From a virus: 64,000 nucleotides of DNA. Positions 16,208-54,004 of this stretch are shown here, one piece after another; within the stretch, counting starts at the first letter, position 1; the number at the start of each line of letters is the position of its first letter. The stretch is taken from IMG/VR virus record IMGVR_UViG_3300022561_000003, one strand, 5' to 3'. The notes beneath the pieces are model-generated. The model was given only the letters and a program-made list of their open reading frames with translations, was not told the DNA's origin and did not search any database. The position numbers and the translations under genes are program-made.

Positions 16208-16386
16208 TATTATTTAATCATCCTCCGATATTTTCTGATTAAATGGGAAAAGAGCTGTGTATCGGCACAACCCTTTTAATTACTGAAAATAGACTTCGAA
16301 CCCTATTTTTCAAACCACAATATTTTTTGCACAATAATAAAGGCAGAGAATTAATCCCTACCTTGTAAAGTGTTATTTCATTTTAT

Positions 16387-17397
16387 TTATTCTGTAAAGG
16401 CATCATCCGCATCATCTGTGTCTTCTCTAATAACATAAATTTTTGTAGTTTCTACAGATTTATGTCCAAGAAGTTTCTGTGCAGTTTCTAAAGTTTTACC
16501 TGAGTGCAATACTAAATTTGTAGCCCTTGATTCTCTAAAAAGGTGAGGATGTACTCTTCTGCCCACTATTAAAGTGAATAATTTCTTGCACCAATAATTA
16601 AAGTTTTCAGGTTGTCTTGCATGAACTCCATCTTTATCTTTACAAACAAACATAAATTCACAATCATCTTCTCCACGAACCTCTAACCATTTCTTTAGTG
16701 CTTCCATAGCCTCTTCAGAGAATTGTAATTTTCTAACAACACCAAGAGCACCATGTCCCTTACAACGAATATTATGGGTTCTATAAGAGGACACTTCTAT
16801 ACTAGTTTCTTTACCATCTTCGTCTTTTACTTTTACTGTTGATTTTTTAGGAATATAATTTGCAACTTCTTTTAAAAGTAATGAGCTCTCCGTACGCCTA
16901 CATCCTGTAGAATAGGTAAATTTAAGATATGCAAGTTTTTCCCATTCTTCCATTTCCTCTAATTTATCACATAGGAAAGTGTATTCAGTAGGAGTCAATG
17001 GTACTTTTTTATTTACTTCTCCTAATGATGGTACTTTAATTCCTTTGTTAACAAAATTTCTAAATGTAGGATACTGTTTCTGATAATAAAGCATAATGTA
17101 ATTATTTAATGTACTTACAGATGATCTTTTAAATCTAATAGCACTTTCACCTAATCCACTGTTATATAACCAACTCTGATATTTTTTATAGTCTATACTT
17201 TCAACTGTTGGTAATGGTTTGTTATCACAATATTCTCTAATATAATTTATCCAAATACGTAAAGATGAACGATATTGTGGCTTAGTTTTTGGAGATAATT
17301 CGTCACTATTATCTATGAACTCTTCAACTATTTTCTTATTGTATTCATTACACAATTGGTACATTTCCTCTGTTAAATTGGTTAATTTTTTAGCCAT
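16387..17397 (-). CDS. Tyrosine recombinase (XerC/D-like)
   Basis: TGCRR, HPHLFR, LLGH, TKIY: the R-H-R-H-Y set is intact. Confidence 0.9.
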   Translation of the reverse strand: MAKKLTNLTEEMYQLCNEYNKKIVEEFIDNSDELSPKTKPQYRSSLRIWINYIREYCDNKPLPTVESIDYKKYQSWLYNSGLGESAIRFKRSSVSTLNNYIMLYYQKQYPTFRNFVNKGIKVPSLGEVNKKVPLTPTEYTFLCDKLEEMEEWEKLAYLKFTYSTGCRRTESSLLLKEVANYIPKKSTVKVKDEDGKETSIEVSSYRTHNIRCKGHGALGVVRKLQFSEEAMEALKKWLEVRGEDDCEFMFVCKDKDGVHARQPENFNYWCKKLFTLIVGRRVHPHLFRESRATNLVLHSGKTLETAQKLLGHKSVETTKIYVIREDTDDADDAFTE

Positions 17398-17584
17398 ATT
17401 TTTATCGTCTCCTTAATTTTACGCATAATAAAAAAGCACTAATAATAATGCTTTACAATGTTATTTAATCTATGTTAAACTATAGTATGGAGAACTCAAT
17501 ATTCTCCTATTACATTTATTAACAGAAAGGACTACTTTTAATATATCCTTTCTGTTAATATCTGAGGAAATCCTCAGTAGTTAT

Positions 17585-18376
17585 TTATTTCTTACATATC
17601 TTATTTATCAATTGGAATGCTATTTCTGTTTTATTCCCATAAATTCCATCCTCAGATAAAGGTGAACCTGTCTGGGTAACGAAATTGAACCAACACTGAA
17701 AATCTTTGCAATATTTGTACTTTTTACTTTGCTTAACATATCCTAAAAAAGTGTCTAATGCAGTTTGGGTATTATTACCATAAGTTCCATCACAAACTAA
17801 TTGATTTTTAGATTGTGTCGATAAATTATAGAAGCGTTGGAACTCCAAAACGTAGTTTACCTTAGAATTGGGTTTTGGTGGAGATGTAACAATTATATTA
17901 TTTGTAGTTAGTTTATTTTTAAAATCATACCATTGGCTCCAATTATTATCACTAAATGAACCGGGACATCGCTTAAAACTGGCATCATAGTGACGTTTAA
18001 CATTTTCAATTGGTATATTTAATTCTTTCATAAGATATTTAATTAAATCTACCGTATTTCCTATTGTTTTTGTAGATGGTTTCATATTAAATTCAAGACA
18101 CATTTCTACGGAAACAGAATTTGAATTGGTTATTCCTCTACTCCCATGTCCATCACCAACAGCCCATGAATTTCTAGTATGGTAATCCATCGTTTGAATA
18201 ATATTATTTGAATCTGTAAAGAAATCGGCAGATGCATTTTTATTTCCACTAGCAAGATAATCTCTATTATTTTTTGCAGACGAAGAAGCTCCGACATCAT
18301 GTAAAATAATATACTTAATAGCTGTATTTCTAATTGAATAATTGTAATCTATAAACAGTTTTTGTATTGCTAACAT
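17585..18376 (-). CDS. Endolysin, N-acetylmuramoyl-L-alanine amidase (Amidase_2) with PG-binding-like repeats
   Basis: IILHD, HY...KRCPG; two DG.YGN.T repeats. Confidence 0.9.
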   Translation of the reverse strand: MLAIQKLFIDYNYSIRNTAIKYIILHDVGASSSAKNNRDYLASGNKNASADFFTDSNNIIQTMDYHTRNSWAVGDGHGSRGITNSNSVSVEMCLEFNMKPSTKTIGNTVDLIKYLMKELNIPIENVKRHYDASFKRCPGSFSDNNWSQWYDFKNKLTTNNIIVTSPPKPNSKVNYVLEFQRFYNLSTQSKNQLVCDGTYGNNTQTALDTFLGYVKQSKKYKYCKDFQCWFNFVTQTGSPLSEDGIYGNKTEIAFQLINKICKK

Positions 18377-19308
18377 ATTATCCTTCCTCCCAATTTATTA
18401 TTTAAATATTCAAGAATTTTTATTTCACGTTCTCTGTTATAAAATTTATATGAAGGATACCAATCTGAAAAATCTTTATCATTTTTTGAGCAGTTACAAG
18501 ATTTACAAGATGGGAGCATATTTTCATCTACATATCCTCCACCTTTAGAAACACTAATAAAATGTTCTTGTTGTAGAGGTAATTCTTCTCCACAATAACA
18601 ACACTTACTATCAAAATAATGTTTTGTTGATTCCCATTCTTCTATTGTAAAAGTAGACAATAACAATAATTTTTTTGCCCTTCTACGTTGTGAAATAGCA
18701 TTGATTAAATCTTTGTTGGCTTTTCTATATATTCTTTTGTTTATGGTAATCTTCTCTTTGTTTCTTTCGTTATATTTTTTGTGCCATTCAAATACTTTAT
18801 CTTTATTGTCGGATCTCCATTTTCTTTGACGGATTAAGCTTTCCTCCTTGTGATTATCTCTATATATTTTACCTCGTACTTTTTCTTTTTCTACATTATT
18901 TATTCGATATTCTTTACCTAACTCCAAACATTTGTCGTGATTTTCTTCTCTATATGCTTTATGTGTTTCTGATATTTTATCTACATTTTCTTCATAATAT
19001 CCCTTCATGCGATTCGATATCTGTTCCTTATGTGTATCTCTATATGCTCTGCCTCGTTCTGATATTTTCTCAGGATTTTCTAATCTGTATTCTTTTGTTT
19101 GTTTACTAATATGTTCCTTGTTTTTCTCATAATATTCTTTTCTCTTTTCTTGAATAAGTTCTTTATTGTCAATTACATATTGTTTTTTATTTTCTTTTTC
19201 GCAAGGTTTACAATAAGAACTCACACCATATTTATGTCCTTTTGCCTTGTAAAAGTTATCAAGCGTTAAATTTTCCTTACATTTGCTACAAATTTTTGTC
19301 TCTTCCAT
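18370..19308 (-). CDS. Free-standing HNH endonuclease (paralog of 15449)
   Basis: CCYCG...EHFISVSKGG...NMLPSCKSCNCSK. Confidence 0.88.
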   Translation of the reverse strand: MEETKICSKCKENLTLDNFYKAKGHKYGVSSYCKPCEKENKKQYVIDNKELIQEKRKEYYEKNKEHISKQTKEYRLENPEKISERGRAYRDTHKEQISNRMKGYYEENVDKISETHKAYREENHDKCLELGKEYRINNVEKEKVRGKIYRDNHKEESLIRQRKWRSDNKDKVFEWHKKYNERNKEKITINKRIYRKANKDLINAISQRRRAKKLLLLSTFTIEEWESTKHYFDSKCCYCGEELPLQQEHFISVSKGGGYVDENMLPSCKSCNCSKNDKDFSDWYPSYKFYNREREIKILEYLNNKLGGRIIC

Positions 19309-19557
19309 TTGTGTTTCCTCCTATTTTTTTTACATAACAAAAAGGCCTGGCAAGTAGTTATCCTGCAAAGGCCTTCTATATATAATTAAGGAGGCATTTA
19401 TTCCATGCAATTCCTTAGTATTAAATTATTATTTAATTCTTACTTATAAAACCTGTGTTTTATATGATTATATTTTATGCTTCCTTATTTCATTTTGTTT
19501 TAAAAAAGGGCAATAAAAAAGCACTATTTCTAGTACATAAAGTATTACCCTTTTTAA

Positions 19558-19707
19558 TTAAGGAATTGGAACTATTAAATTACCGAATCCATCAACTATT
19601 AGCATTGCATCAACATCTGCTTTTAATGGAGTATATCTTGGTATTGAAAAAACTGCTAGGTAGTCTAATTTCCCTAATTCTATTCTTTGTGCTAAATATA
19701 AAGCCAT
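19558..19707 (-). CDS. Small tail-associated protein (49 aa, XkdX position)
   Basis: GAGGAGGTG RBS; MALYLAQRIELGKLDY...VDAML. Confidence 0.65.
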   Translation of the reverse strand: MALYLAQRIELGKLDYLAVFSIPRYTPLKADVDAMLIVDGFGNLIVPIP

Positions 19708-19733
19708 ATCATTCACCTCCTCTCACATCCTTT

Positions 19734-20123
19734 CTAAAAGTTCATTATGATGAAGTCTATTGCACCAGCATTTGTTGCAACATCTTCTTTTAATTTTATA
19801 TTATCTGCTTTTAATACTACATTTTCACTTTTAAGTGCTTCAATAATATCTGATTGACTTACCTTAAACACAGGATATTGGAATAATACCTCATTTGTGT
19901 TTATATCTATCATAAAGGTTGTTGCCATTTCAAAATTATTTTCATATTGCATATAATCTAATTGTTTAACACCAACTTGACTTGGATTTCTTCCGTTTAA
20001 CACATCAAACATGATAAAGTCTTGCTCTTTTGTGGTATTGACTGCATTTTCACTATGTTTTTGTGGAATCATTAAAATTGTAGTTCCTGTTGTTAATTCA
20101 TAATATATTTTTTTCCCTATCAT
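19734..20123 (-). CDS. Tail fibre assembly/chaperone-like protein
   Basis: Follows the tail fibre; C-terminal coiled coil. Confidence 0.55.
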   Translation of the reverse strand: MIGKKIYYELTTGTTILMIPQKHSENAVNTTKEQDFIMFDVLNGRNPSQVGVKQLDYMQYENNFEMATTFMIDINTNEVLFQYPVFKVSQSDIIEALKSENVVLKADNIKLKEDVATNAGAIDFIIMNF

Positions 20124-20142
20124 TGTAACGCCTCCATTTTTA

Positions 20143-21177
20143 TTAACTAATACATAAAATGCTTAAGTTAATTGTATTTGATGGCACTGTATTACCACCA
20201 TTACTACAACTTATATTAAATGTTGCGGTAAAACCGTCACTATTAGCAACAAAATTTGTTATAGATATAGTCCAACTAATTGTTGTATAATAATAAACTA
20301 AATCTTTATTAGGCGATAAATAACCACCGTTTAATGAATAATCAGTAGTATATAAATAATATCTATTAGTAGTATTAATAAATATTTGTGAGGGTTGAAA
20401 ACCAACTCCACTAACGGTAAAACCTACCGAAGTTGAACCTGAACCAGTAGGTACAGTAATGGTAGTAGTTTTTGTTATTGTTTTCTTTTCAACTACATTT
20501 CCAATAATTCCATCAATATTAATACTATTTTTTATATTACTTGCTATTAAATTACTTAAATTTTTAGTGCCTGTTACAATTCCATTATCAGTTCCAATAG
20601 TTTTACCAAGCACTACATCACTACTTATGGCTGTTCCGTAATCACCTCCCTCACCCAATAATTGAAAATTTGTGCCATCATAAAAGAAGGTATATACACC
20701 AATTTTTAAAGTTGCATCTAACCCTCCTGCCTTTTTTATTCCTTTTGTACTTCCAATAGAAGATATATTCAAGGTTGCTACTCCTGTTGAATTTGCGTTG
20801 ATTTTAACGGTAAATTTCTGATTAGCAACAATAGTCTCAGTGCTTGTAATACTATAAGCATTTCCGATATTTGTAGTTGTTCCTAGATGTGGTATTGCCT
20901 TTGTGTTATCTGCCAAATGAGCAACTAAATCAACATTCTCTGCTTTTGCATTAAACTCGCTCGCGGTTATATTGCAAGATGCAAAAAGAGTTTGAAATAA
21001 TATTACCAATCCATTTTCACCAGTAGTTGAGCTATATGATAACCCACTACTAGCACTTGTAAAACTTAAATTCCCTGTAGTAGTAAGAGGGGATTCTTTA
21101 TATGATAAACCATCATATCTAATTTTTTCAGAAGCATATAAAGAATTAAAATCTACTTTTGTACTCAAATTAAGCAC
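20143..21177 (-). CDS. Tail fibre / receptor-binding protein
   Basis: VAHLAD...H, F..KINAN.TG..TLNI, YDGTNFQLLGEGG, GTAISSDV..GKT; T/S-rich C-terminus. Confidence 0.75.
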   Translation of the reverse strand: MLNLSTKVDFNSLYASEKIRYDGLSYKESPLTTTGNLSFTSASSGLSYSSTTGENGLVILFQTLFASCNITASEFNAKAENVDLVAHLADNTKAIPHLGTTTNIGNAYSITSTETIVANQKFTVKINANSTGVATLNISSIGSTKGIKKAGGLDATLKIGVYTFFYDGTNFQLLGEGGDYGTAISSDVVLGKTIGTDNGIVTGTKNLSNLIASNIKNSINIDGIIGNVVEKKTITKTTTITVPTGSGSTSVGFTVSGVGFQPSQIFINTTNRYYLYTTDYSLNGGYLSPNKDLVYYYTTISWTISITNFVANSDGFTATFNISCSNGGNTVPSNTINLSILCIS

Positions 21178-21214
21178 TTCCTTTCATTAATTTAATTATT
21201 ATTTAATTGTTATA

Positions 21215-22633: not shown

Positions 22634-22694
22634 ATTTTCACATAATAGAAAAACACCTACTACATAGTAAGTGTTTTAAGTTTTTACTTATTAT

Positions 22695-22982: not shown

Positions 22983-22996
22983 ATTACATCACTTCC

Positions 22997-24987: not shown

Positions 24988-25008
24988 TTTAATATTACCT
25001 CCCTTCTC

Positions 25009-26067: not shown

Positions 26068-26070
26068 AGT

Positions 26071-26111: not shown

Positions 26112-29100
26112 TTAGACTAAAGCAACTTTTGTTTTAAAACTACTTATAAATTCATCTACATTATTTGCCACCACTTTATCAATATGATAATTATGAATAA
26201 TTGGTGCAACCACAGATTGATTATTATGACCAGATGTATTGCTCATATTTATTTTGTCCATAATATTTTCCATAGAAATTAAAGCAGAGGGAAGATAAGA
26301 TACAAGTTGTCCGAAATCTTGAGTTTGAGTTGATGATAATACTCTTTCTTTTGTATCTACCATAGCTAATCTATTACCACTAAATGAACCTACTTCTCCA
26401 CCACTTGCAAATTTAGGAACAACCCCTTTGCCTGATAATATCTTTTCATTAAGTAATAATGTAGCAGCCCTATCAGAGCCTGTAGCCCCTCCACCTTTAG
26501 ACACTGTAATATTAACTCCACTACCATACTTTGCTTGTAGCATTGCTTTATCAACCTCTGTGTTTACTGTAATAGAAGCTGAGTTACCAACTCCTGTAGT
26601 TCCTTTTACAGTGGAAGATAAAGTACCATTTGCTTGTGATAATAGGAGAGAATCTTGTAATGATTTAGCAGAATCTACATCTGTTGTAAGTTGTTTTATT
26701 ATTTCAACCCAATTATCTCCATACGTTTTCTTTAATAATTTTAATGAAGTATCCGCAAGGAGATTCATATCTGCATAATGGAGAGTTAGAAGATTAGTTT
26801 CTATAAGTTGATCTTTTTCAAGTGTTACAAGTTTTTCAGAATATGCTAAATCTTTTGCAGTTTTTTCATCTGCTAGTGATTTTTTTAACGCATTAAGAGA
26901 ATCAGTTTGATGTTTTAGTGCTATAGATTTCTCAAAATCTGCATTAGATTTAACTTGGTCATTTAAGGCTTTTTGTGCGGATTCAATTGCTTTAGGATCT
27001 GCAATATATTCTTTTGTAAATTTCCCATCTGCACCTTGTTTTATTTGCATAACATTTTTTTCTTTTAGTGTATTTTGTAATGCAGTTTGTTTTTCTATTA
27101 AGTCATTCTGATTTTTTAATCTATCTTCAATTTCTTTATTAATATCATTTACAGTATTTAGATTGTCAATTTGTGTCTGAATTGCATCTTGTTGTTTTTG
27201 ATTTTCTTTATCATAAATTTTAATTGAATCTTCTGCTGATTTCATTGCAAGTTTCTTTTCGTTTAATGCTAATGTATCATTTCTATTAGCACCAGTTTCA
27301 CCAGCACCTGCTTTAACAGTTATGTCTAAATCCGAGTATTTCTTTTGTAACATTTCTTTGTCAATTTCTGTATTTACAGTGATAGTTTTACTTGGTACTC
27401 CACCATAAATTGAAGATGCTAATTTGTTTTTCTCATTGTCTTGTTGCTGTTTTAAGGCTATTTCATCGCTAACTCTTCTAGATTCTAAAAGCGAAGTTAC
27501 TCTCTCTTTTGCTTGAGTTTTAAGTGCAAGAGTTGTGTCTAATTCCATTTTTAATAATTTAGATTTCAAGATAATCATTTCTTGTAATTGTGCTTTTGTA
27601 TATTTACCACTTTTTAATCCATCTTCTACAAGTTTGATTTCTTGTTTTTTAATGTCTAATTCTTTATTGAGATTAGATACAATTTCTTTTTCGTATCCTT
27701 TTCGTTTTAAATCATCATCTGTTATTTCTGCTTGACTTGACAAAATATCGTTTTTACTTTCATATTCTGCAATTTTATCATCATATTGTGCTACTCTAAT
27801 GTTGAATTTTTGATATGCAAATCCTGCTAACTTTTCTTCCCAATCAGCTATATCAGCTTTATCTTGTTCAATTTGAGCTTTGAGTTTATCGGAACCATTA
27901 TCTGTTGTGGATTCTCCTGTTGATGATGTAAAGCTTGATTTTCCTCCTGGAGTATTGTTCTTTACTTTATTTAAATAAGATCGAGTTCCTTCGCCATATC
28001 CCATAATAGCTTTTTCTACATCTCCACCAGCCCATGAGATACGTTTAACAAGATATTTAGCAATTGCGTCTATAGATGATTTAGCATCAGTTCTATCAGA
28101 TAAACCTTCTTCTTTTGCTGTACTATAAAGGAATTGTCCAAGTCCAGTTGCACCAGATTTAGAATTTCTAGCTAAGGGATTAAAACTTGATTCTGTCTGA
28201 ATAATTCCAGCTATTAGATTAGGATCTATTCCATATTTAGAACCAGATTGATTTATCCAATCTTTATATTTACCATTTGCATATCCACCAGCATAATTTC
28301 CTGAAGATGTATTCGATGTCATAGTAGATTTAGAAGATTTATTTGTAGCAGATTCTACAGATAACATTGATTTAACATTTGCTTCATTAGTTTTTATGGA
28401 TTGTTGAGTTAGGGTAATTTTCTTTTTGATAAGAATTGCTTCTTTATCTAATCCGGCGATATATGCATCAGAGTTTGGTGCAAGCTTAGATTGAGATATT
28501 GCAAGAAGTTTAAGTTGATTATCTAATTCCTTGATGGCCTGTTTTTGATCGTTTATTGCATTAGTGGCTTGTTTATTTGCATCTGTGAGAGCTTTAGTAC
28601 CTTTTGTTACTTTTTCTTTAGATTTACCAACATCTTGAAGAGAAGTATCTACAGAAGTAATTATATTCTTTAATTTAAAGTAATCATCAATTGATTTTAC
28701 AGTTTCTCCTGCTCCACCACTACTAGCTTGAGATGCTAAACTAGCTTTCTTACCTAAGTAATATGATTCTTCGTCTGTGGCTCCACTAGCTTTACCAAGA
28801 GTTTCAAATTTCTTTTGGATTATATCTAAGTTAGCAGCATATGCCATTAAGTATGCATTTTTAGCATCTATTGCAGTTTTAAAATTAGCAATATCTGTAA
28901 GGTAAGCTCCAGCTATTTTCTTAATTTTATCTGCGGTTACTTGTAATTCATCCTTTGCTGCTTTCTGAACAGTTACAATATTATCTCCTTTTATTTTTGT
29001 TAATTCTTGTGCAAGGAGTTTATCATCGTTCATAACTGCGAGAAGGGAAGGATAAGTTGATGCAAGTTTTAGGATTGATGCTGTATCCCATTCGTTAGTT

Positions 29101-33385: not shown

Positions 33386-33411
33386 AAAAAGAGTAGATGA
33401 TTCCTACTCTT
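33386..33411 (-). terminator. Terminator-like hairpin just upstream of the TMP RBS
   Basis: AAGAGTAG...CTACTCTT plus T-tract on the minus strand. Confidence 0.6.
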
Positions 33412-34744
33412 AACTTACTAAGTTATTATTTAGTTGTTGTTTGTAATTTTGTTTGAATTCTTCAAATTGTTCTGGGGTATTTTTCCCATATCCATATTCT
33501 AAATGAAATCTATCATGCACCTCGTTGGACAAACAAACGCCCAATCCATATTTAGCATGCAATTTAGTACAAGTATCTACTAATAAAGCACTTTCTATTT
33601 CAGTATACATATTCATTTCAGTATATATTGGTAAATTGGTTATACTAAGTGTTTCTTGAATTATTTTATCAAATCCATATAAATGATGGACTACATTAAA
33701 TCTACTACCACTTAAAATACATTTATAGTAACTCTCTTTAATGGAGTCTTTTTTCCATTGTAATATATTTGAACGCAGATATTGAGAAAGAGTGCTTACT
33801 CCACCATTCCATCTACAATTACCTTCTCCAATTTTACTCTCCGTAGAACATATGGGGCATCTAAAGTCTCGATGTTTTGAACCGTTAGTGCTTCTTTCAA
33901 AATCATCATGTTTTCCATCTGGACATTTAAACCAACAAATTTCAGTTGAGCTTGGAGAAACATCATGCGCAGATTTTTTATTCTTATCCGAATATATATA
34001 TGATAAATTTATTTCTTTAAGTAAACTACCTAAGCTATCTCCTTCATTAAATACATTATGGCTACAACAAGGACATCTTGTTCCGTTTTTAAAATTCCAC
34101 CAAGCAACGATATAATCCTCGTGATAATCTTTGTTTTGGCATTTAATCCATATCTTTTTATCTGAACCTAAACTTATTTTCCAAGGATTTAATGTATTTT
34201 TATCTGACCAATATTTATCTAAAAAATCTTCTCCTAAATTGTCTATGCTCCATTGAGCAAGACTATCTTTGGGATGAACCTGTTTACCTGCACAGAAGGG
34301 GCATCTACAACCTTTTGAAAAATGACGAGGTTCTATTTTATAACTATCATGATAAGAGTTGTCTTGGCAAAATATAAAAACATCTTTTGTTGACATCACA
34401 GTGATATTCCATGGATTATTTCCTAACTCATTATTTTTATCCCAATCCCAATACTTTTCTAAAAAATCTTTATTTATGTTGTCTATATTATATTGTGCAA
34501 ATGAATCTCTTGGATGAACTTTTTGTCCAACACAACATGGACATCTTTTACCTTCTGAAAAGTGGCTACAACTGATTTCATAGCTTTCATGATAATCTGT
34601 TTCTAAGCATTTTATCCATACTTTTTTATGTGCTCCCTTAGTATACTCACTCCAATGTTTTTCATTCTTTTCATAATCCCAATAGGGTTCTATCACTTTC
34701 CAAAATTCCTCGTTTGTCTTGCATACAATTCGTTCTTTTAACAT
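33410..34744 (-). CDS. Treble-clef zinc-ribbon repeats plus HNH endonuclease (true start MLKERI at 34744)
   Basis: Repeated W.C..H...G.RCP.C units; CILSG..VVHHL...VHDRFH; AGGAG RBS before 34744. Confidence 0.8.
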   Translation of the reverse strand: MLKERIVCKTNEEFWKVIEPYWDYEKNEKHWSEYTKGAHKKVWIKCLETDYHESYEISCSHFSEGKRCPCCVGQKVHPRDSFAQYNIDNINKDFLEKYWDWDKNNELGNNPWNITVMSTKDVFIFCQDNSYHDSYKIEPRHFSKGCRCPFCAGKQVHPKDSLAQWSIDNLGEDFLDKYWSDKNTLNPWKISLGSDKKIWIKCQNKDYHEDYIVAWWNFKNGTRCPCCSHNVFNEGDSLGSLLKEINLSYIYSDKNKKSAHDVSPSSTEICWFKCPDGKHDDFERSTNGSKHRDFRCPICSTESKIGEGNCRWNGGVSTLSQYLRSNILQWKKDSIKESYYKCILSGSRFNVVHHLYGFDKIIQETLSITNLPIYTEMNMYTEIESALLVDTCTKLHAKYGLGVCLSNEVHDRFHLEYGYGKNTPEQFEEFKQNYKQQLNNNLVS

Positions 34745-34929
34745 ATTATATTTCACTCCTAGTTTTATATTTTCACTCGAAATTAAATAAGGTGGCAAGA
34801 TAAGCGAGTGAAAACTTATCATTCCAAAAGGTTTATAACTCCTCCTGTTGCCACTTTTTATAATAATATTAAATTATTATTTAGTTGTTAAAACTTGTAT
34901 CAATTGCATAAATAGTCTTCCTTACCTAA

Positions 34930-34958
34930 ATTATACCAAGTTATTATTTAATTGTCAA
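34930..34958 (-). promoter_or_regulatory. Consensus sigmaA promoter with embedded 17-bp motif
   Basis: TTGACA-ATTAAATAATAACTTGG-TATAAT. Confidence 0.8.
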
Positions 34959-36292: not shown

Positions 36293-37711
36293 TTAAATAG
36301 CTTCTTGTAAAACCAAATTATTATTTAATTGTTGTTTTAATATTTGTTCAATTTTATTATCTATTAATAATTTATATGTTTCCCTTTTATTATCTGCTTT
36401 ATAAGATATTTCTAAATAATTATATCCTTTAGATTTAGAATATATCCGTTTATATCTATCTTTTAATTTTGTATAATGTAACTCTTGCTTTGGTGTAGTG
36501 TTTTTAGTTTTTGCTTGCATTATATGATACCCATTTATTCTATAATGTTGCTGTCCCATTACTTCACATAAAAGTTTTAACTCTAATACTTCATTATCAA
36601 AAGGCAAGGTATTATTAGTGCCCTTTCTTTTAGGATTTATAGGAACAATAGTACACCTATGTTCATGCAATATTGTATAATCAAATGTATTTAAATATAG
36701 TCGCACCTTTTCTTGAAGAAGACTTTCATTTCGTTCTTGTGTACATTCTGGACATCGGAAATCACATTTATTAGCATCATATATTTTCGTGAAATGTTCC
36801 CCATGTTTTCCGCAAGGGCACTTCCAATAAATTTTATTATTATTCATTGGTGAATATTCATATGGTGATTTCTTATTTCTATCTGACCATAATTCTAATA
36901 CTTGAGGAAATAAAGTCCCAAGTGAATCTAAAATATGCAAATGACCAACTTTATGTGAACAACCGGGACATCGACATCCTTTATTAAATATACAAGGGGA
37001 AGATTTATAATCATCATGATAATCCTTATCTTGACATTTAATATATATCGGATTATTTGAACCACAATAATCAATTTCCCAAGGACTGATTGTATTTTTA
37101 ATACTCCAATACTTATCAAGGAAATCTTCACATATATTATCAATTCCCCATTGAGCAAAACTGTTACATGCTTTACAATTCATACTACCTTTATCAAATG
37201 TAAAGCTAGCAATATGTTTCTTTTCACTGGGATGGATACCCATAGGACATTTAAAATAATACTTTTTTGCTGTTCTGCAATTAATTTCACTAATTTTATA
37301 TTTATTAAGTTTTTCATCCCATCTATCAATTAAATCTTTTCTTCCGTTTTCATTGCACCAATCTTCTAGACTCTTGCCACCATTTTCTAATTTGGATTTC
37401 ATTGCTCTTTTACCAGCATATAACTTAGTTGCACAAACATTACAATAATAGGTATTGTCTTTGTGGACTTGCTTTGTATAATCACTCCATGCTATATTTT
37501 TAAGAATATCTCCGCATCCATCACATTTTACGTTAACTTTTACACCGGATGCCTTAGATAAATCTTTTATATTCACCATTAATGTTGTCCCTTTAGGACA
37601 AACTAATTTTCCTTTAGAACCCACTATTTTATTTATTCTATATCCTAGATTTTCATAATACTCAACATTTCTAGGACTTATATTTATTTCAACGTGCTCT
37701 GTTATTATCAT
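36293..37711 (-). CDS. Zinc-ribbon repeat / PD-(D/E)XK-type putative endonuclease
   Basis: CDGCG, RCPGC, RCPEC; LPFDNEV..LLCEVMGQQHY...D..K. Confidence 0.72.
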   Translation of the reverse strand: MIITEHVEINISPRNVEYYENLGYRINKIVGSKGKLVCPKGTTLMVNIKDLSKASGVKVNVKCDGCGDILKNIAWSDYTKQVHKDNTYYCNVCATKLYAGKRAMKSKLENGGKSLEDWCNENGRKDLIDRWDEKLNKYKISEINCRTAKKYYFKCPMGIHPSEKKHIASFTFDKGSMNCKACNSFAQWGIDNICEDFLDKYWSIKNTISPWEIDYCGSNNPIYIKCQDKDYHDDYKSSPCIFNKGCRCPGCSHKVGHLHILDSLGTLFPQVLELWSDRNKKSPYEYSPMNNNKIYWKCPCGKHGEHFTKIYDANKCDFRCPECTQERNESLLQEKVRLYLNTFDYTILHEHRCTIVPINPKRKGTNNTLPFDNEVLELKLLCEVMGQQHYRINGYHIMQAKTKNTTPKQELHYTKLKDRYKRIYSKSKGYNYLEISYKADNKRETYKLLIDNKIEQILKQQLNNNLVLQEAI

Positions 37712-37835
37712 CTATTATTCCTCCTACAGAATATTATTATTTAATTGTCCTAATTATTTAAAAAGGAGAAATTGGCTTAGGATTGCCAACTTATCAATAA
37801 GGTCTATAAGTTCCTTATTTATCTCCCTTATATAT

Positions 37836-43794: not shown

Positions 43795-43848
43795 TTTTAT
43801 ATTCCTCCTAAATTTTAATAAATTATTATTTAATTGTTAATATTTTAA

Positions 43849-45722: not shown

Positions 45723-45757
45723 AATTCACCTCCTTTACATAACAAAAGAAGTCATGA

Positions 45758-46729
45758 TTAGATGACTTCTTGAATAGATAACATATTTAATTTTTTATCT
45801 AGAATTATTTCAATATTCTCAAAGTCCCAATATGGAATTACTATGAGTTCTATATTATTAACTTTACAGTATTCTCTTTTAATTCTATCATTATTTTGTA
45901 CATATAATAGATTTTCTTCTCCACCCCAATATTCAATTGCTTCATAATGTTGGAGGCCTTGATACTCTATCAAATATAATATATCTGAATTGTTTTCTAA
46001 AATAACAAAATCAAAAGGCAATGTATTTATATGTCTGCAATCATCAATTCTATGTTGTGACTTATAATTTATATCTTGATTTTCTAGATAAGTCCTTATC
46101 CTAATTTCTCCCAATGATTTTCCACTACAAACAGAACATTTCCTTTGATAATTATTTTTAAAACAATAAAAGGAAACTTCATATTCTTTACCACATTCAC
46201 ATCTAAGTGATAATTTAGTATCAATATTAATGTATTTATTGCTCAATAGTTTACAGTCTGTATTGGATTCGATATATTCTTTAACATATTCATAAGCGTA
46301 TGCACGATATTCAAGATTTTTACGTCTCAATATTTCACCGCATGTATTACATTGATTTTTACCATTTTTCTGAAAGTTTGCCAAAGTAGTATGAAACATT
46401 TCTCCACAAATACATTGTATATCTAATATTGCATTATTTTTATCATATTTTTTACTAATTAGCTTACATCCATTACTGTAGGGACTATTTTCAATAATAT
46501 CTTTCACTTGTTTATATGAAAATCCTCTAATTTCTTTCATGTGTTTCATCGAACATACATCACACTGATGTTTATTTTTATCCTTAAAAATCTTGAAATT
46601 TGTAGTAAACTTATTACCACAATTACATTCTATTTCTAATGGCTTAAAAATACCTTTATAATCCAGACTAATTAATTTGCATCCAGCATCTTCAATTGTA
46701 GTTTTAACAAATTCATAACTTAAACTCAT
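45758..46729 (-). CDS. Zinc-ribbon repeat / PD-(D/E)XK-type putative endonuclease (paralog of 41061)
   Basis: Same repeats; LPFDF..LIEYQGLQHY..D..K. Confidence 0.75.
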   Translation of the reverse strand: MSLSYEFVKTTIEDAGCKLISLDYKGIFKPLEIECNCGNKFTTNFKIFKDKNKHQCDVCSMKHMKEIRGFSYKQVKDIIENSPYSNGCKLISKKYDKNNAILDIQCICGEMFHTTLANFQKNGKNQCNTCGEILRRKNLEYRAYAYEYVKEYIESNTDCKLLSNKYINIDTKLSLRCECGKEYEVSFYCFKNNYQRKCSVCSGKSLGEIRIRTYLENQDINYKSQHRIDDCRHINTLPFDFVILENNSDILYLIEYQGLQHYEAIEYWGGEENLLYVQNNDRIKREYCKVNNIELIVIPYWDFENIEIILDKKLNMLSIQEVI

Positions 46730-46907
46730 ATTTATTACCTCCGAAGTAATTATTATTTAATTCCGATTGATTTTAAAATAGGAAGCGTAAACTCGGAAGG
46801 TTCCGTTTATCAGAATAACTGAGTGTCGACTCTCAATTCATTCCTATCCCATTTATTATAATATGCAAAGCTTATAGAGTTGTTACAAAATATTTCTCTA
46901 TAGTTAT

Positions 46908-46936
46908 ATTATATTAAATTATTATTTAATTGTCAA
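46908..46936 (-). promoter_or_regulatory. Consensus sigmaA promoter with embedded 17-bp motif
   Basis: TTGACA-ATTAAATAATAATTTAA-TATAAT. Confidence 0.8.
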
Positions 46937-46958
46937 TATATATTTTAACATTATTTAA

Positions 46959-48470: not shown

Positions 48471-48506
48471 ATATTACACCTCCTCCTTTTGTAAGTTATT
48501 TAAGTA

Positions 48507-50264
48507 TTAGTTGAAACTCATTGCAATTCCCATGCACATTCCTTGCGTATTATTATTATAGTTTTCCCTGTTTTCATCCTCTAACTTGGAAATATAATCC
48601 ATTGCCATCCAAAGTGATGAGCAACGATCTTTGTGTTGAGTTGTCAACGCAGTATCATAAAAACTATTTCCTTTTGCTGTAAATTTAGGAACTATAGTTG
48701 ACAATTCAAACTGTAATTTATCAGCTTCAAAATATATCGCCATTTCTTCAATTAACAATTCTCTTGGCTTTGATTTATCTGCTTTTTTTGAATCATCGAA
48801 AGAATCTTGTTGATATCTCCTTGCTTCAGAAGATGGAATAGGTAAATGTAATGTTTTATTTTCAAAATATATTTTAGTTTTTACAACCATGTTATTATTA
48901 ATAGTATTGCTTCCACGAAAAACCCTAACTATTGGAATAGCATTATTTCCGGTGTATCCAATATCATCTCTTACAAATGGCTTATATTCTACACCTTCAC
49001 TTACATAAGGAAAGTTTAATAAACTTACAACTCCTTCCCCAATAGCATTTCCGTCAATAATTGTGGATTCTATATTAGGGAATCTAAGACAAACTTTTCT
49101 AACCTCTTCTGCGAGTTTTTCTGGAGGATATCCATGAAATGTTCTTATAAAGACAACATATTTATGAAAGGTTCCATCATTTTTTTCAATAAATTTAATT
49201 ACTATTAAACTTGCATTATCTGCTCCATCTGCTTCAGAAGTAGCCACATCTAAACTTAATATGTACCTAGATTTTGAATGAGAGGGCTGTTTCAATTCTA
49301 TAGAAGGCATATCTCTAGAGGGTTCTGTAATATCATATGGGAAAAATGAACCATTTTGATTTCCAATAAACTTTGCTCCCCATTCCATATCAAATATACT
49401 TTCAAGCATATTTCCCTTTTCTTCTTCTACAAACCCTTTCTCTATAATACCCGTTCTAATTCCTGCTTCATAACTTAAAGCACATGCGAACTTATTCATG
49501 TTCCCCTTTTTCATTTCATCAATAGTATCTGTAAATCTTTTGTATAAATCACATGTCTTGAGATAGGCACTAGATGTTTCAAAAAGTTTGCTGGGGAAAT
49601 CTTCAAAGTTCTGTTCTCTTGCAACATCTCTTGTATATGATAGCATTGGTCTTAATGCCTTTTGAATTACAGTCGACTTTATTAGCCAACTTTCGTCAAT
49701 ATATATAATTTTCTCTCTCAAACCGACTATGTTTTTCCCATCTTTTTCCATAGCTTTGCATATTATAGTAGAGTTATTTTTAAACTTAATTGTAGCTCCA
49801 TCCTTACTGATTCGTACAGGCAAGATTATTTCTCTCGCAAAATTTTCATTCTTAGCTGCGATATCTCTAATATAATTTGCCACCAACATTGCTTGATTTA
49901 CGTTACCGGAGACCACGAGACAACGGTTGTCTGAATATAAAATTGACAATGCGCTTAATATCCATGCCATTTTCCATGTCTTACCAAATGAACGTGCCTC
50001 AATGTCTATTACATTTGTACATGTCCCGCAATTTCTCACGACAATCTTTTGAACATCTTTAAACGAAACTGGCTTACCTGGAGATGAGAAATATTCCTCG
50101 ATAAAAATATCTAAGTGCTGACGATAAAATGATACCAACTTTTCCCAAATTTCTGGATTTTCAACGCCACCTTGTTTTACTACGCAATGACTATCTGGAC
50201 TATCTCCATTTATTTGAGTTTGATTTTGACTTGCATTTTTTTTATGTGAAAAGTTTGTTGCCAT
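48507..50264 (-). CDS. Terminase large subunit
   Basis: Walker A ARSFGKT, Walker B IYIDE, nuclease LDVAT...D and KDR.S. Confidence 0.9.
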   Translation of the reverse strand: MATNFSHKKNASQNQTQINGDSPDSHCVVKQGGVENPEIWEKLVSFYRQHLDIFIEEYFSSPGKPVSFKDVQKIVVRNCGTCTNVIDIEARSFGKTWKMAWILSALSILYSDNRCLVVSGNVNQAMLVANYIRDIAAKNENFAREIILPVRISKDGATIKFKNNSTIICKAMEKDGKNIVGLREKIIYIDESWLIKSTVIQKALRPMLSYTRDVAREQNFEDFPSKLFETSSAYLKTCDLYKRFTDTIDEMKKGNMNKFACALSYEAGIRTGIIEKGFVEEEKGNMLESIFDMEWGAKFIGNQNGSFFPYDITEPSRDMPSIELKQPSHSKSRYILSLDVATSEADGADNASLIVIKFIEKNDGTFHKYVVFIRTFHGYPPEKLAEEVRKVCLRFPNIESTIIDGNAIGEGVVSLLNFPYVSEGVEYKPFVRDDIGYTGNNAIPIVRVFRGSNTINNNMVVKTKIYFENKTLHLPIPSSEARRYQQDSFDDSKKADKSKPRELLIEEMAIYFEADKLQFELSTIVPKFTAKGNSFYDTALTTQHKDRCSSLWMAMDYISKLEDENRENYNNNTQGMCMGIAMSFN

Positions 50265-50273
50265 ATTATCCTC

Positions 50274-51131
50274 CTAATCCAAACTGCTTAAAACATGACG
50301 TAAGTCTTTATTTATTTTACTAATATCGTCATCTTCAAACACAATTTTTTTCTGTAGGAAACCATTTTGTTCTAACCATGCTGTTATCTCAGAGAGGGAG
50401 CCTAAGCCAGCAGTATCATTTTGTCCGCGTGTCTTCTCACTTAGCTTGGCACTTTGGGATAAACTATCAAAAATCGCTTTATTTTCTTTGTATCTTTTAT
50501 CTCCACCAGCATTTCCATTCATCATATCGTTGTACGCAATATCCATAGCTAAACTAGCTTTTGCAATTTTTCGGACATAATCCTTATGATTACGATTAAC
50601 TACAACGAAATCATTACAGGTATCAAAATAATATGTATCTAACCATTGAATATTTGATTTACTATAGTTTCCTTGCCAAATTTCCGACCAAATTTTCTTC
50701 TCTTTACCTTGTTTAATGGGCTCTAAATCCTCATCAGTATCATTGTCTAAGTCTTCTTCGATAAGAGATACTGGTTCATTACTTCCAATAAACTCATAAT
50801 GAGGGGATATACCCATCCTTTGAAAATATATATTTCTTATCTTTTCAAATAAAAAAGACTCCCTTTTATCTTCAGAGAGAGAATTGTAATCTATATTATC
50901 ACCATATTTTTTAGTTGCTTCTAATGTAGCTATATCTACCAATTCCTGTTGAAATTTTCTATCATTTAAACTACAATACTCTTTTAAGCCTGATAAATCT
51001 TTACTTATTTTACGAGAATCTTCCTTACAAGTGTTATCATAAGAATATCCTTGTTTATTATCTCTATTTGTATAATAGTTACTCATTTTTTTAGTTTTGT
51101 GGCAACATATACATTGCTTTGAACTGATCAA
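50274..51131 (-). CDS. Putative terminase small subunit / zinc-finger protein
   Basis: CICC..C N-terminus; immediately upstream of TerL. Confidence 0.5.
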   Translation of the reverse strand: MISSKQCICCHKTKKMSNYYTNRDNKQGYSYDNTCKEDSRKISKDLSGLKEYCSLNDRKFQQELVDIATLEATKKYGDNIDYNSLSEDKRESFLFEKIRNIYFQRMGISPHYEFIGSNEPVSLIEEDLDNDTDEDLEPIKQGKEKKIWSEIWQGNYSKSNIQWLDTYYFDTCNDFVVVNRNHKDYVRKIAKASLAMDIAYNDMMNGNAGGDKRYKENKAIFDSLSQSAKLSEKTRGQNDTAGLGSLSEITAWLEQNGFLQKKIVFEDDDISKINKDLRHVLSSLD

Positions 51132-51480
51132 TATATCTCACATCCTTTCATTACAAATTTATTTTCTCCCACAAATTAATAAAAACAGAAGAGGCGAGGA
51201 GGGATCTCGCACTAATCCATAGGAGCTACCCATGAATCTCTTCTATCCTGTGAATAAGAATACTCACAATTCAATTTACTATAAAATAAACTGAATTCTA
51301 AATATTATTTAATTGTTAAATATTAAACAGAGAGAATACCAGAATCGACACCCTACGTTAAGATTCATATTCTCTCTAAAATTTGATTAGCACCAGTTAG
51401 TCCATACTAATCTTCACACTCTGTACAAAGTGTATTATACTGTCTACAGTGAGCATCACATGAAAGGTGAGAGGCTTTAG

Positions 51481-51553
51481 AGGACTCATTGGGGATCGAA
51501 CCCTCGATTAGAATCGTGAAGGTCATCTTGCCTTACCACTTGGCTACTCTACT
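51481..51553 (-). pseudogene. Degenerate tRNA remnant
   Basis: D-arm TAGCCAAGTGGTAAGGCA and T-loop GGTTCGATCC present; acceptor stem not formed. Confidence 0.45.
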
Positions 51554-51613
51554 ACAATTAAATCTAGTTTACTTTTCTATTATTCCACAGGAAGAAACTA
51601 GGAAAGAAACCGT

Positions 51614-51689
51614 TGGAGCTTTCGATAGGATTTGAACCTACGCAAAACTGATTACAAAACAGACACTCTACCAACTGAGTTACGAAAGC
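51614..51689 (-). tRNA. tRNA-Thr(UGU) with encoded CCA and a weakened anticodon stem
   Basis: GCTTTCG/CGAAAGC acceptor, ACTC-AGTTGGTA-GAGT D-arm, TT-TGT-AA loop, GTAGG-TTCAAAT-CCTAT T-arm; two T-T mismatches in the anticodon stem. Confidence 0.7.
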
Positions 51690-51735
51690 ATAGAAATGGA
51701 AGGTTCCTTATGCCAAAGTCACCTACAACCCGATT

Positions 51736-51809
51736 AGAACGGAATGAGATTTGAACTCATATCTTATAATCTTATAGGAAAATGCTTTATCCAATTAAGC
51801 TATCCATTC
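51736..51809 (-). pseudogene. tRNA-like gene with a collapsed anticodon arm
   Basis: Acceptor GAATGGA/TCCGTTC, D-arm GCTT-AATTGGATA-AAGC and T-arm ATGAG-TTCAAAT-CTCAT intact; anticodon stem unpaired. Confidence 0.55.
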
Positions 51810-51932
51810 ATAAATGATCCATTATTGCGAACCTGCCATGAATCAAGGCGACTCTGATTTTTCCGTTGTCAGGCAACTGCCATCCCATTCGTATGGTATT
51901 AATATTCTTATAAAAGCATACTTTTAAAACAT

Positions 51933-52005
51933 TGTGGGTAAAGGACTTACACCTTTTCTTTATCTCCGTTATATAGGAGTGTCTCGATTCTTATGACATA
52001 CCCAC
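51933..52005 (-). pseudogene. tRNA-like structure with atypical loops
   Basis: GTGGGTA/TACCCAC acceptor, CTCC/GGAG arm with 8-nt loop, AAAGG-TGTAAGT-CCTTT arm. Confidence 0.45.
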
Positions 52006-52177
52006 ACTCTTAAATCATCCATTAAGGCAGGAATTCTCCGTTACTTTAATTTTTCGCCAAAGTAATAAATGCTAGTAAGTCTTAATCTTACGCTCCTGTT
52101 GTATAAATATTACATGATAAACCCTCCTATTACGTAGCATGAATCTGGTCGCAAGCGGGGCAGATTTTTGATTCTTA

Positions 52178-53452
52178 TTACATAACTATTAATCCATTTT
52201 TATTAAAATCCATATACATAATGTCTAATTCTTTCTCTAGTTTCCTGAGATGTGTATAGTCAATTCGAATTAATCTAATACCATTTTTATTACAATATTC
52301 ATTTTTTAAAATATCATGAGCTTGTGTAATTATGAATCTTTCATCCCCACCTAATCTTGTTGATGCTACAAAATGTTGTAATCCATCAAATTCAAGAATG
52401 TGGTTAAGTTTTGTTTGTTCTTTATCATCGAATATTGCAAAATCAAATCTTAGAAAACCACCTTTAGAACCTTTTAAATCTCTAAATATATATTCTTGTT
52501 TAAAATTAATTCCACCAGCAGTTAAAAACTTTCTTATTTTCTTTTCGCCTTTAGATTTATTACATAAAGGACATCCTGTTTCGCTTCTAACACCTTGATA
52601 ATTCTTTTCTTGAATTACATTAGGATGATTTTCACATATATATTTTATATGTTGTGAATCACTAGTATAAGTTTGCCCCTCTATTATATGTAACCCCACC
52701 TTCTCAAATTCGCTAAATACAAATTCTTGAGATAGTCTTGTTGCTAATTGACTATTTGTTATGCATTTTTTAGCAATATCTTTATTTCGTATTCTTTTTA
52801 TTCTTCTGTTTTTATCACACTCAGGGCATCTTGTTCCAGATAAAAAACTAGTTGGCAATATCTCATATTCATAATTATTACATTTTTTACAGTTATGTCT
52901 TATTTTTATCTTATTAGAATAACCTTTATATTCTTCTAATAAGGTATATTCGTCTTGAACTAATTCATAAACTCTATCTATTAGATTTTGAGTTGTCATA
53001 GTATTTTTTTCTATATATATCTTTGTTCCACATTCATTACATTGGCGTTTATTCGCATTTTTAAATGTATCAAATGTTGTTTTAAATATATTGCCACATT
53101 CACATTGAATCTCTATTTTTACTTTTGTAGAAATATAATCTTCTTTCTTAGTAATTAAAGTACATCCATTCCCTAATTCACCATTAATATATTCTTTTAT
53201 ATTTTCATAAGGGATACTCATAATTTTTTTAAAGTTATTTTGACTACAGATATCACATTGTTTTTTAGGATTTTTCTTAGTATAAAAGTTATCCAGTTGA
53301 ACTTCAAACTCAGTTTTATCAGAGCATCCACATCTTAATCGTAAAATTATTCTATTTCTTTTTCCTCTTTCTTCTACTCTATAATCTAAAAATTCACAAG
53401 AACTTTCCTTTTCTACATAAATTTTTAAACTATCACTATTCCATTTAGCCAT
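52178..53452 (-). CDS. Zinc-ribbon repeat / PD-(D/E)XK-type putative endonuclease
   Basis: CGC, CECG, RCPEC; LRFDFAI..ILEFDGLQH..D..K. Confidence 0.75.
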   Translation of the reverse strand: MAKWNSDSLKIYVEKESSCEFLDYRVEERGKRNRIILRLRCGCSDKTEFEVQLDNFYTKKNPKKQCDICSQNNFKKIMSIPYENIKEYINGELGNGCTLITKKEDYISTKVKIEIQCECGNIFKTTFDTFKNANKRQCNECGTKIYIEKNTMTTQNLIDRVYELVQDEYTLLEEYKGYSNKIKIRHNCKKCNNYEYEILPTSFLSGTRCPECDKNRRIKRIRNKDIAKKCITNSQLATRLSQEFVFSEFEKVGLHIIEGQTYTSDSQHIKYICENHPNVIQEKNYQGVRSETGCPLCNKSKGEKKIRKFLTAGGINFKQEYIFRDLKGSKGGFLRFDFAIFDDKEQTKLNHILEFDGLQHFVASTRLGGDERFIITQAHDILKNEYCNKNGIRLIRIDYTHLRKLEKELDIMYMDFNKNGLIVM

Positions 53453-53561
53453 TTTAATTCTAATCTCCTCTGTTTTTTATTTAAACAAAAGAGGGTAGGA
53501 ATACAGCCTACCACTCAACTCCAAAATCGAATCACAGTCGAAAGGAGTTATTATTTAATTG

Positions 53562-53777
53562 TTATACTTCTTCTAAAATATCTTCTGAAATTCTTTTATA
53601 TAATTCTGCTATATCTTTCTCAGCTTCTCTATATCCAATCTCGTACATTTCCAAAAGTGTACATCCTAAACATCCACCTTCAGATATATTCTCAATAGCG
53701 GAATTTACTAAATCCTCTTTAGTCATTACTTCTTCCTCACAATTTTCACCACATATACATTCTTTAGAATCACACAT
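53562..53777 (-). CDS. Small Cys/acidic protein (probable start MCDSK)
   Basis: GAGGAG RBS before ATG at 53777; CLGC motif. Confidence 0.6.
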   Translation of the reverse strand: MCDSKECICGENCEEEVMTKEDLVNSAIENISEGGCLGCTLLEMYEIGYREAEKDIAELYKRISEDILEEV

Positions 53778-54004
53778 ATAAATACATCTCCTCAATTCCT
53801 TATTTTTAGAAAGTCCTCAGTTAAGGTAGAGGACAACCACCTTGCGTTAGATTTACGCATTAGACGTTAATAGAAAATGACCACCTACACTTTCTCCATA
53901 TATCATGGGCTATTGGGCAGCAGTAATTTAAAATCTTTAGTAAACTAGACATAATTTTTAGTCACTAGCAATGGATTTTAACTCATTGGTAAATTATTAT
54001 TTAA

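Follow-up and report, generated by a model that had tools for sequence, protein, structure and literature searches.

Matched loop and Shine-Dalgarno boxes in the leaders of homing-endonuclease-like phage genes: a candidate translational control with the design of int-alpA RNA

What keeps the selfish nuclease genes of an AT-rich phage quiet is the question raised by the stretch of DNA analysed here (the window: 64,000 nucleotides, bases 48821-112820 of the 125.8-kb virus record IMGVR_UViG_3300022561_000003, with ~29% G+C). Structured leaders, found mainly ahead of homing-endonuclease-like genes, carry a hairpin loop that is complementary to the Shine-Dalgarno (SD) region of the next gene and, in most of them, to a second site before it. 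We put the probability that these leaders control translation in cis, through pairing of the loop with the SD sequence, at about 0.55, judging from sequence. An earlier note on this DNA had proposed a pseudoknot switch on endonuclease translation; the leader family, the covariation of its loops with boxes and SD sequences and the homing-endonuclease-like context were recovered, while the idea of a wholly undescribed family and that of a general promoter bypass had to be given up.

All six leader structures are read on the minus strand. We call P1 the closing stem, P2 and P3 the two hairpins, L3 the loop of P3, box 1 the L3-complementary site after P1, box 2 the second copy at the SD sequence, and P4 the small hairpin that holds the SD. 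The parts are listed below (nt, nucleotides; bp, base pairs; aa, amino acids; ORF, open reading frame).

16199..16312 (-): leader c1, before the 252-aa HNH/endonuclease VII-like gene 15449-16207
16284-16312 (-): P2 of c1
16248-16277 (-): P3 of c1
16260-16265 (-): L3 of c1, CCGAUA
16222-16230 (-): single target of c1, UAUCGG, overlapping the SD GGAGG, as UAUCGG(AGG)
16206-16218 (-): partial copy of a 17-nt motif, between the SD and the AUG of c1
34735..34868 (-): leader c2, before a 444-aa DUF4379 zinc-finger nuclease-like gene, AUG 34744
34848-34854 with 34792-34798 (-): P1 of c2
34825-34847 (-): P2 of c2
34799-34820 (-): P3 of c2
34805-34814 (-): L3 of c2, UUUUCACUCG
34770-34779 (-): box 1 of c2, CGAGUGAAAA, 10 bp with L3
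34751-34759 (-): box 2 and SD of c2, GGAGUGAAA, 8 bp with L3
37701..37864 (-): leader c3, before a 472-aa nuclease-like gene, AUG 37711
37822-37829 with 37762-37769 (-): P1 of c3
37796-37819 (-): P2 of c3
37772-37789 (-): P3 of c3
37777-37784 (-): L3 of c3, AAUCCUAA
37748-37753 (-): box 1 of c3, UUAGGA
37733-37748 (-): 17-nt motif in c3
37716-37733 (-): SD hairpin P4 of c3
37720-37726 (-): box 2 of c3, UAGGAGG
46719..46936 (-): leader c4, before a 323-aa nuclease-like gene (phrog_559, 1.6e-55), AUG 46729
46847-46854 with 46776-46783 (-): P1 of c4
46812-46844 (-): long P2 of c4, with GUCGAC in its loop
46786-46805 (-): P3 of c4
46793-46799 (-): L3 of c4, CUUCCGA
46761-46766 (-): box 1 of c4, UCGGAA
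46734-46750 (-): P4 of c4
46738-46744 (-): box 2 of c4, UCGGAGG
53767..53858 (-): leader c5, before a 71-aa Cys-rich ORF that is not recognisable as a nuclease; closing stem not found
53844-53858 (-): P2 of c5
53823-53843 (-): P3 of c5
53829-53834 (-): core of L3 of c5, GUCCUC
53813-53818 (-): box 1 of c5, GAGGAC, in H-type pseudoknot geometry
53788-53793 (-): SD of c5, GAGGAG
51121..51249 (-): structure c6, a strong three-way junction of -29.5 kcal/mol, its 12-bp P1 leading into a U run

The loop and target matches described in the earlier note are present at their minus-strand positions in five of the six structures (c1-c5), and c6, which it had called a weaker case, is indeed one, its loop and target matching over only 4 nt. 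A closing stem with two hairpins, making a three-way junction, had been claimed for four of the six, and RNAfold gives it for c2, c3, c4 and c6; c1 folds into two hairpins without a closing stem, which its orthologue in the relative G001 does have. An unbiased scan for three-way junctions on both strands of the whole genome placed c6, c2 and c3 within the four lowest-energy intergenic matches of the minus strand and also recovered c4. In a tail-shuffling test the complement of L3 had p values of 0.006 (c1), <0.0002 (c2, with its 10-nt match), 0.055 (c3), 0.005 (c4), 0.03 (c5) and 0.58 (c6).

The matches could be chance complementarity in AT-rich intergenic DNA, picked by eye. A genome-wide scan for any hairpin loop with a downstream 6-mer complement showed no enrichment over Markov shuffles and is of no evidential use, c6 and some of the single tests are not significant, and the folding z-scores are weak. 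As this generic scan and the folding energies are uninformative, significance rests on the restricted tail test and on covariation in orthologues. The 10-nt match in c2, the compensatory changes in orthologues and the recurrence of this layout in 53 bacterial leaders picked independently, described below, speak against coincidence, which we consider very improbable indeed.

The closer relatives of the window phage are metagenomic contigs of ~70-80% nucleotide identity, namely G001 (122 kb), G002/L025 (31 kb), L026, L028, L048 and L050; pseudoknot pairs were counted by hand in them, and whole-leader MAFFT alignments misplace the helices. Loop and targets do change together, as had been claimed, with compensatory changes between c1 and G001 and between c5 and L025. 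CCGAUA/UAUCGG of c1 is UCCUUAA/UUAAGGA in the G001 orthologue, with the flanks conserved and the leader preceding a homologous gene (both genes start METK). GUCCUC/GAGGAC of c5 becomes ACUCUC/GAGAGU in L025, three double changes in six pairs with none broken, and both hairpin stems of L025 hold compensatory changes too. The c4 leaders of L025 and L026 keep the loop, box 1 and the SD box and have compensatory changes in P2 and P3 (for example, G-C to A-U in both stems), and the P2 and P3 stems of c6 also covary between relatives. Pairs of G and U on the sense strand, found in P2 of c2 and in P3 of c4, point to an RNA rather than a DNA structure.

At least seven different loop/box codes were found, and several coexist within single genomes: five in the window phage, two in G001 and two in the viral contig L056. 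The parts of the leaders are also shuffled among relatives. At the position of c3, G001 carries a mosaic in which a c4-like P1 and P2 (by BLAST) are joined to a c3-type loop AUCCUAA, box 1 UUAGGAU, SD UAGGAGG and a c3-like gene, and in G002 and L026 a c4-type leader stands ahead of a c3-like gene:

G001 71310-71465: module-shuffled leader
G002 28141-28359: module-shuffled leader
L026 3719-3917: module-shuffled leader

By these comparisons, leader parts and ORFs are exchanged as modules in which the loop and its boxes stay matched.

In c3 and c4, their orthologues and most relatives, the SD is held in the short hairpin P4, the loop of which exposes the L3-complementary bases and the 3' strand of which begins at the last G of the SD (UAUUCU-GUAGGA-GGAAUA in c3, AAUACU-AAUCGGA-GGUAUU in the contig L099). 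In 14 of 21 leaders the minimum-energy structure of the tail contains P4, on stems of diverse sequence, and an SD-enclosing hairpin of at least 5 bp is found in only 16% of the other genes of this genome; in c3 and c4 it is weak (-2.8 to -3.6 kcal/mol). Matches of L3 to box 1 are 6-10 nt long and lie 8-12 nt after P1 in c2, c3 and c4, and box 1 is also matched in c5. Because P4 displays L3-complementary bases at the SD, L3 has two possible partners, box 1 through a pseudoknot and box 2 through a loop-loop kiss. The helices, the two boxes, their covariation and the seat of box 2 at the SD are all present in this family.

One could instead take the two boxes as a bipartite protein site, bound by a CsrA-like GGA-binding dimer or by the encoded nuclease, with L3 competing against that protein and not against the ribosome. 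The leaders of B. subtilis hag and E. coli glgC are known CsrA targets, and the two-box layout resembles them: most boxes hold GGA, and one box lies over the SD in a hairpin loop with the other 6-26 nt upstream. GGA is absent, however, from box 1 of c2 (CGAGUGAAAA) and from box 1 of the L025 c5 leader (GAGAGU), and the boxes vary freely while matching L3, which argues for RNA-RNA pairing and not for a fixed protein motif. We rejected a CsrA-type site as a general explanation, several boxes having no GGA, and regard the protein-site reading as a whole as quite improbable.

The family had been thought possibly undescribed, and this part of the earlier note does not stand: the three-way junction, its junction nucleotides, the L3-box 1 pairing and the SD box make up the architecture of int-alpA, Rfam family RF02996. 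An Rfam scan of the window in both gathering and E-value modes returned two transfer RNAs (tRNAs) and noise only, with no match to a leader. The connection came through a pattern made from the loop and boxes of c4, which found, among the matches listed, the unrelated viral contigs L099, L083, L056a, L090, L087, L015, L194 and L061. Their P2 is short, their junction nucleotides (UA, GAAAA, CU) are conserved, and they precede HNH, HNH_3+HTH and DUF559/RAP-type nuclease genes. Looser patterns run on the collection gave mostly chance hits among the matches listed, and a strict pattern gave three distinct true leaders only. Against the RF02996 gathering cut-off of 35.8 bits, L099 scores 43.7 bits, L083 30.1 and L056b, a second copy in L056 with a c3-type loop, 29.6. 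The Rfam consensus reads P1, UA, P2, GAAAA, P3 with a CCUU-containing loop, CU, P1', a U-rich linker and AgGG, that is, the junction plus box 1. A covariance model built from five short-P2 relatives aligns c4 over its full length, at 15 bits and, in a targeted search, E 7e-4, as P1, UA, P2 with a 26-nt insertion, GAuAAA, P3, loop, CU and P1'; over 338 kb c4 was found at E ~1 with default filters, and with the filters off no leader was found.

A scan of bacterial genomes used no more than the invariant core of int-alpA (CGAAAAGCGGG, loop, CCCGCCTG), with no constraint on loop or tail, and gave 53 matches with a proper P1 and junction. A complement of L3 of at least 5 nt, starting ~15 nt after the start of P1', is present in 45 of the 53, a second copy follows 4-10 nt further on in 44, and a P4 of at least 4 bp encloses that second copy in 35, the start codon coming next in most. 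A 6-nt match to L3 occurs in 25 of the 53, versus 10% when loops are swapped between members. Some of the codes are these:

L3 CCUUCA: UGAAGG twice
L3 CCCUG: CAGGG and AGGG
L3 CCCUA: UAGGG and AGGG
L3 CCGUG: CACGG and ACGG
L3 CAGCCU: AGGCUG and GCUG
L3 CCCUC: GAGGG twice

This survey indicates that the two-box design is a general architecture of the int-alpA class. The ORFs downstream of the sampled bacterial loci matched no Pfam family. The int-alpA motif is reportedly one of the 224 candidate RNAs of Weinberg et al. 2017; the literature searched, the original supplement excepted, contained neither a function for int-alpA nor an account of the SD box.

Window leaders and int-alpA agree in the order of helices in the three-way junction, which spans ~50 nt in int-alpA. 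In both, L3 is rich in pyrimidines, measures 7-11 nt and can pair with a site ~8-12 nt downstream of P1; this site recurs at the SD within a small hairpin, and both are carried by mobile elements. The int-alpA junctions UA / GAAAA / CU are UA / GAUAAA / CU in c4 and UA / GAUA(AG) / UU in c3, a partial fit, and c2 and c6 are without them. Unlike int-alpA, the window copies are AT-rich and have a P2 of 7-12 bp instead of 3-4 bp, and they precede HNH/endonuclease VII-like and DUF4379 nuclease-like phage genes, in contrast to the integrase/alpA context. From their sequence, we take the window leaders to be a diverged, AT-rich, long-P2 variant of the int-alpA design. The covariation of L3 with two boxes, the second of which is the SD of the next gene in a small hairpin, suggests recasting int-alpA as a cis-acting device of translational control. 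What is new here is the link of an orphan motif to homing-endonuclease-like genes of several nuclease families, in AT-rich phages beyond the current Rfam model, and it argues for a wider Rfam seed that takes in the tail, P4 and long-P2 variants.

How would such a leader work? From the layout we infer an effect on translation, the direction of the switch and what tips its balance, and a pseudoknot or kissing contact controlling translation is the most economical reading. The leaders would be cis-acting 5' leaders of one structural class, mainly on free-standing homing-endonuclease-like genes. Transcription would start from a host-type promoter at or just before P1, and the RNA would fold into the P1-P2-P3 junction, with P3 presenting the pyrimidine-rich L3 as an anti-SD mimic tailored to the SD flank of its own gene. 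With L3 on the single-stranded box 1, 8-12 nt after P1, a pseudoknot would leave the SD free, and with L3 on box 2, usually in the P4 loop a few nucleotides before the start codon, a loop-loop kiss would exclude the 30S subunit. The balance between the two partners would hold translation of a potentially harmful nuclease low or conditional, and the SD-bound state might be favoured by refolding, by a protein or by another RNA, or the leaders might simply divide between two states of nearly equal stability. This specific decoy-switch version is a tentative proposal, somewhat more doubtful than probable.

Several points weigh against cis control through L3-SD pairing. In every case box 1 pairs with L3 as well as or better than the SD does and is transcribed first, so the default would leave the SD free and repression would need an extra factor or refolding. 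In c3, c5 and G001, L3 pairs with the SD over only 5 bp, and CCU-rich loops match any SD to some degree. RNAfold energies are unremarkable beside those of shuffles (z from -0.1 to -2.6). The genes downstream of c5 (71 aa) and c6 (285 aa) are not recognisable as endonucleases, and the nuclease-like gene at 60675-62069 has only the 17-nt motif and an SD at its start, without a structured leader. Even at E<=10, the RF02996 model finds nothing in the window or in the rest of the 125.8-kb genome, the score of c4 on our own covariance model comes partly from the shared loop sequence, and c3 and the G001 mosaic do not score on it; kinship with int-alpA is argued, in place of a direct model match, from the chain RF02996 - L099 - c4 - G001 mosaic - c3 and from the shared design. 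The sole RNA run among the public reads holds contigs of relatives, in which transcript ends are not visible.

On the side of cis translational control stands its fit with the known need to restrain the translation of homing endonucleases, and with the SD hairpin at 53465-53493 described below. A still bolder idea, to which we give little credence, is that the int-alpA class might be a programmable, bistable RNA lock, with a constant junction scaffold and an exchangeable L3/box address, that travels with selfish genes (homing endonucleases, genes of integrative elements). The coexistence of codes in one genome hints at selection for orthogonality and so at sensing in trans. If the lock were real, leader RNA from another copy, resident in the same cell or newly arriving, could for example compete L3 off box 1 or bind the SD loop itself, and nuclease expression would be coupled to the presence of kin elements.

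Predicted promoters feed into P1:

37836-37864 (-): c3 promoter, matching TTGACA-17-TATAAT at 12/12, ending 6 nt before P1
34863-34868 (-): -10 box of the c2 promoter (10/12), ending 8 nt before P1
46908-46936 (-): c4 promoter, 12/12, 53 nt before P1

A further 12/12 promoter lies 75 nt upstream of the 10/12 one of c2, and a perfect promoter abuts the leader in G001 as it does in c3. Such promoters indicate that the leaders are the 5' ends of the genes' own transcripts. Past the perfect promoter at 34930-34958, positions 34877-34909 (-) hold an SD-like AAGGAAG and a 10-codon mini-ORF, MQLIQVLTTK, which overlaps the second promoter feeding the c2 leader.

Promoters abutting P1 would also suit a junction that is a separate small RNA (sRNA) or an intrinsic terminator, made up of a promoter, ~70 nt of structure and a U-rich tail, and affecting what lies downstream in trans or by termination. 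RF02996 is typed as sRNA in Rfam, U-rich tails follow P1 in c3, c6 and the Rfam consensus, and a scan flags a terminator-like site in c3; several loop codes per genome would make sense if the RNAs acted in trans. Boxes 1 and 2, however, lie beyond the U-rich tract and covary with L3, which means that the selected RNA includes the boxes. Many members (L099, L083, L015, L087) have no U tract, and the distance from P1 to box 1 is held to 8-12 nt, as for an intramolecular pseudoknot. We therefore regard an sRNA or terminator as an unlikely account of the family. For c6 alone the balance differs: this structure is conserved only in G002, it occupies the position of a plain terminator in relatives, and in five other relatives the gene downstream of it has no orthologous leader. 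We take c6 to be probably a terminator and not a member of the switch family. It lies just past a tRNA locus, ahead of a conserved 285-aa gene upstream of the large terminase.

The 17-nt motif, AACAATTAAATAATAATT, has ~60 copies in the genome, all co-oriented with genes and usually ending 1-8 nt before an SD; a few copies supply the -35 box and spacer of perfect TTGACA-17-TATAAT promoters. Examples are:

7476-7487 (+): 17-nt motif
21195-21206 (-): 17-nt motif
43822-43833 (-): 17-nt motif
54643-54654 (-): 17-nt motif

As the earlier note had observed, it stands between box 1 and the SD in two leaders, c3 and c4. If the motif were a promoter for a phage RNA polymerase, its transcripts would lack the junction and box 1 and alone be translated, those from host promoters or read-through being silenced by L3-SD pairing. 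The strand polarity of the motif, the c3 and c4 copies that separate box 1 from the SD hairpin, a large protein encoded in the window (with a match only to a PHROG of unknown function) and the precedent of phage T4 are consistent with such a bypass. Yet the orthologous c4 leaders of L025 and L026 carry only part of the motif, c1 has it between SD and AUG, c2 and c5 have none between their boxes, and the boxes of relatives and of bacterial int-alpA leaders are 4-10 nt apart, with no motif between them. Across the genome, its position 1-8 nt before SDs is like that of a start-associated element, and is as reminiscent of the start-associated sequences of Cluster K mycobacteriophages as of a promoter. 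Together with the strong sigma-A-type promoters that lead into P1, the lack of the motif between the boxes of relatives and its place after the SD in c1 remove the T4-like late-promoter bypass as a general mechanism. An account of the leaders by bypass is, in our judgement, improbable; a further layer of control of this kind is possible in c3 and c4.

RNA structures that sequester the ribosome-binding site are known to repress translation of homing endonuclease genes of the T4 family (I-TevI, I-TevII, I-TevIII, segB, mobE) (PMC2988022). The window leaders are like them in that a selfish nuclease gene would have its SD masked by structure in its own leader. T4 uses a single local hairpin with a late promoter inside, whereas the anti-SD of the window leaders is the loop of a separate three-way junction, which would reach the SD from afar and for which a second target competes, and the bypass promoter is not general. 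A truly T4-like arrangement, with a strong local hairpin on the SD, is found in the window only for the nuclease-like gene 52178-53452:

53453-53561 (-): leader of the gene 52178-53452, with two hairpins followed by the SD hairpin
53465-53493 (-): 11-bp hairpin sequestering the SD (CUCUUUUGUUU / AAACAGAGGAG)

Translational riboswitches and the mRNAs of type I toxins are built as anti-SD / anti-anti-SD platforms. Like them, the window leaders have competing pairings around the SD, and an upstream SD-like sequence can take the anti-SD away. They differ in having no evident ligand-binding core and in pairing codes that vary, and their partners are a loop and a single strand or second loop instead of alternative stems. 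The proposed mechanism bears on how selfish nucleases and genes of integrative elements stay quiet, and is a testable model for the whole class. In the nuclease leader of another phage (L020, ~1090-1240), we noticed four segments able to pair by turns, UACUCCUU, GAGGGAGUA, UACUCCCUCUUU and lastly the SD AAAGGAGGGUA, an anti-SD / anti-anti-SD design with an SD-like decoy and no three-way junction.

The window DNA was found in glacier metagenomes among public reads. By tblastn, the terminase has only distant kinship to Clostridium phage c-st and phiCD211-like phages, and megablast against the phage collection found no close relatives of the window phage. The structural genes are on the minus strand of the window, and among them are six nuclease-like genes of homing-endonuclease type:

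15449-16207 (-): nuclease-like gene, after c1
33410-34744 (-): nuclease-like gene, after c2
36293-37711 (-): nuclease-like gene, after c3
45758-46729 (-): nuclease-like gene, after c4
52178-53452 (-): nuclease-like gene, matching phrog_559 at 7e-54
60675-62069 (-): nuclease-like gene, matching phrog_4538/559/9084, directly upstream of a 905-aa gene

The first hairpin had also been described as often having T-loop-like sequences. The sequences exist, and are better described as 6-nt palindromes in the loop of P2; we rejected a T-loop or tRNA-like reading of P2, there being no tRNA or Rfam match at that place. Six of nine P2 loops of the AT-rich group hold such a palindrome (UUCGAA, UUAUAA, GUCGAC, UUGCAA, AUUAAU, UAAUUA), and random loops of that composition hold one ~10% of the time. 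Three are in the window, and others in L025 and L019:

16294-16303 (-): P2 loop of c1 with palindrome
34832-34840 (-): P2 loop of c2 with palindrome
46824-46831 (-): P2 loop of c4 with palindrome

The palindromes are often flanked by purines, as are the dimerisation loops of retroviruses. They could reflect dimerisation of the leaders by kissing loops or a descent of P2 from perfect DNA palindromes.

Two further stretches lie beside c6 and c5. The first, 51250-52177 (-), is a 1-kb non-coding region in which two tRNAs are called, one with an unusual anticodon loop, besides more tRNA-like and multi-hairpin segments; it has the highest word depth of the RNA run. The second, 53860-53995 (-), is upstream of the c5 hairpins and forms a block near-identical in L025 (for example, UGCUGCCCAAUAGCCC and GGAGAAAGUGUAGGUG). 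In the ice metatranscriptome run, contigs of a relative cover the 53479-54100 bin and the tRNA locus, and the block at 53860-53995 may be an abundant non-coding RNA.

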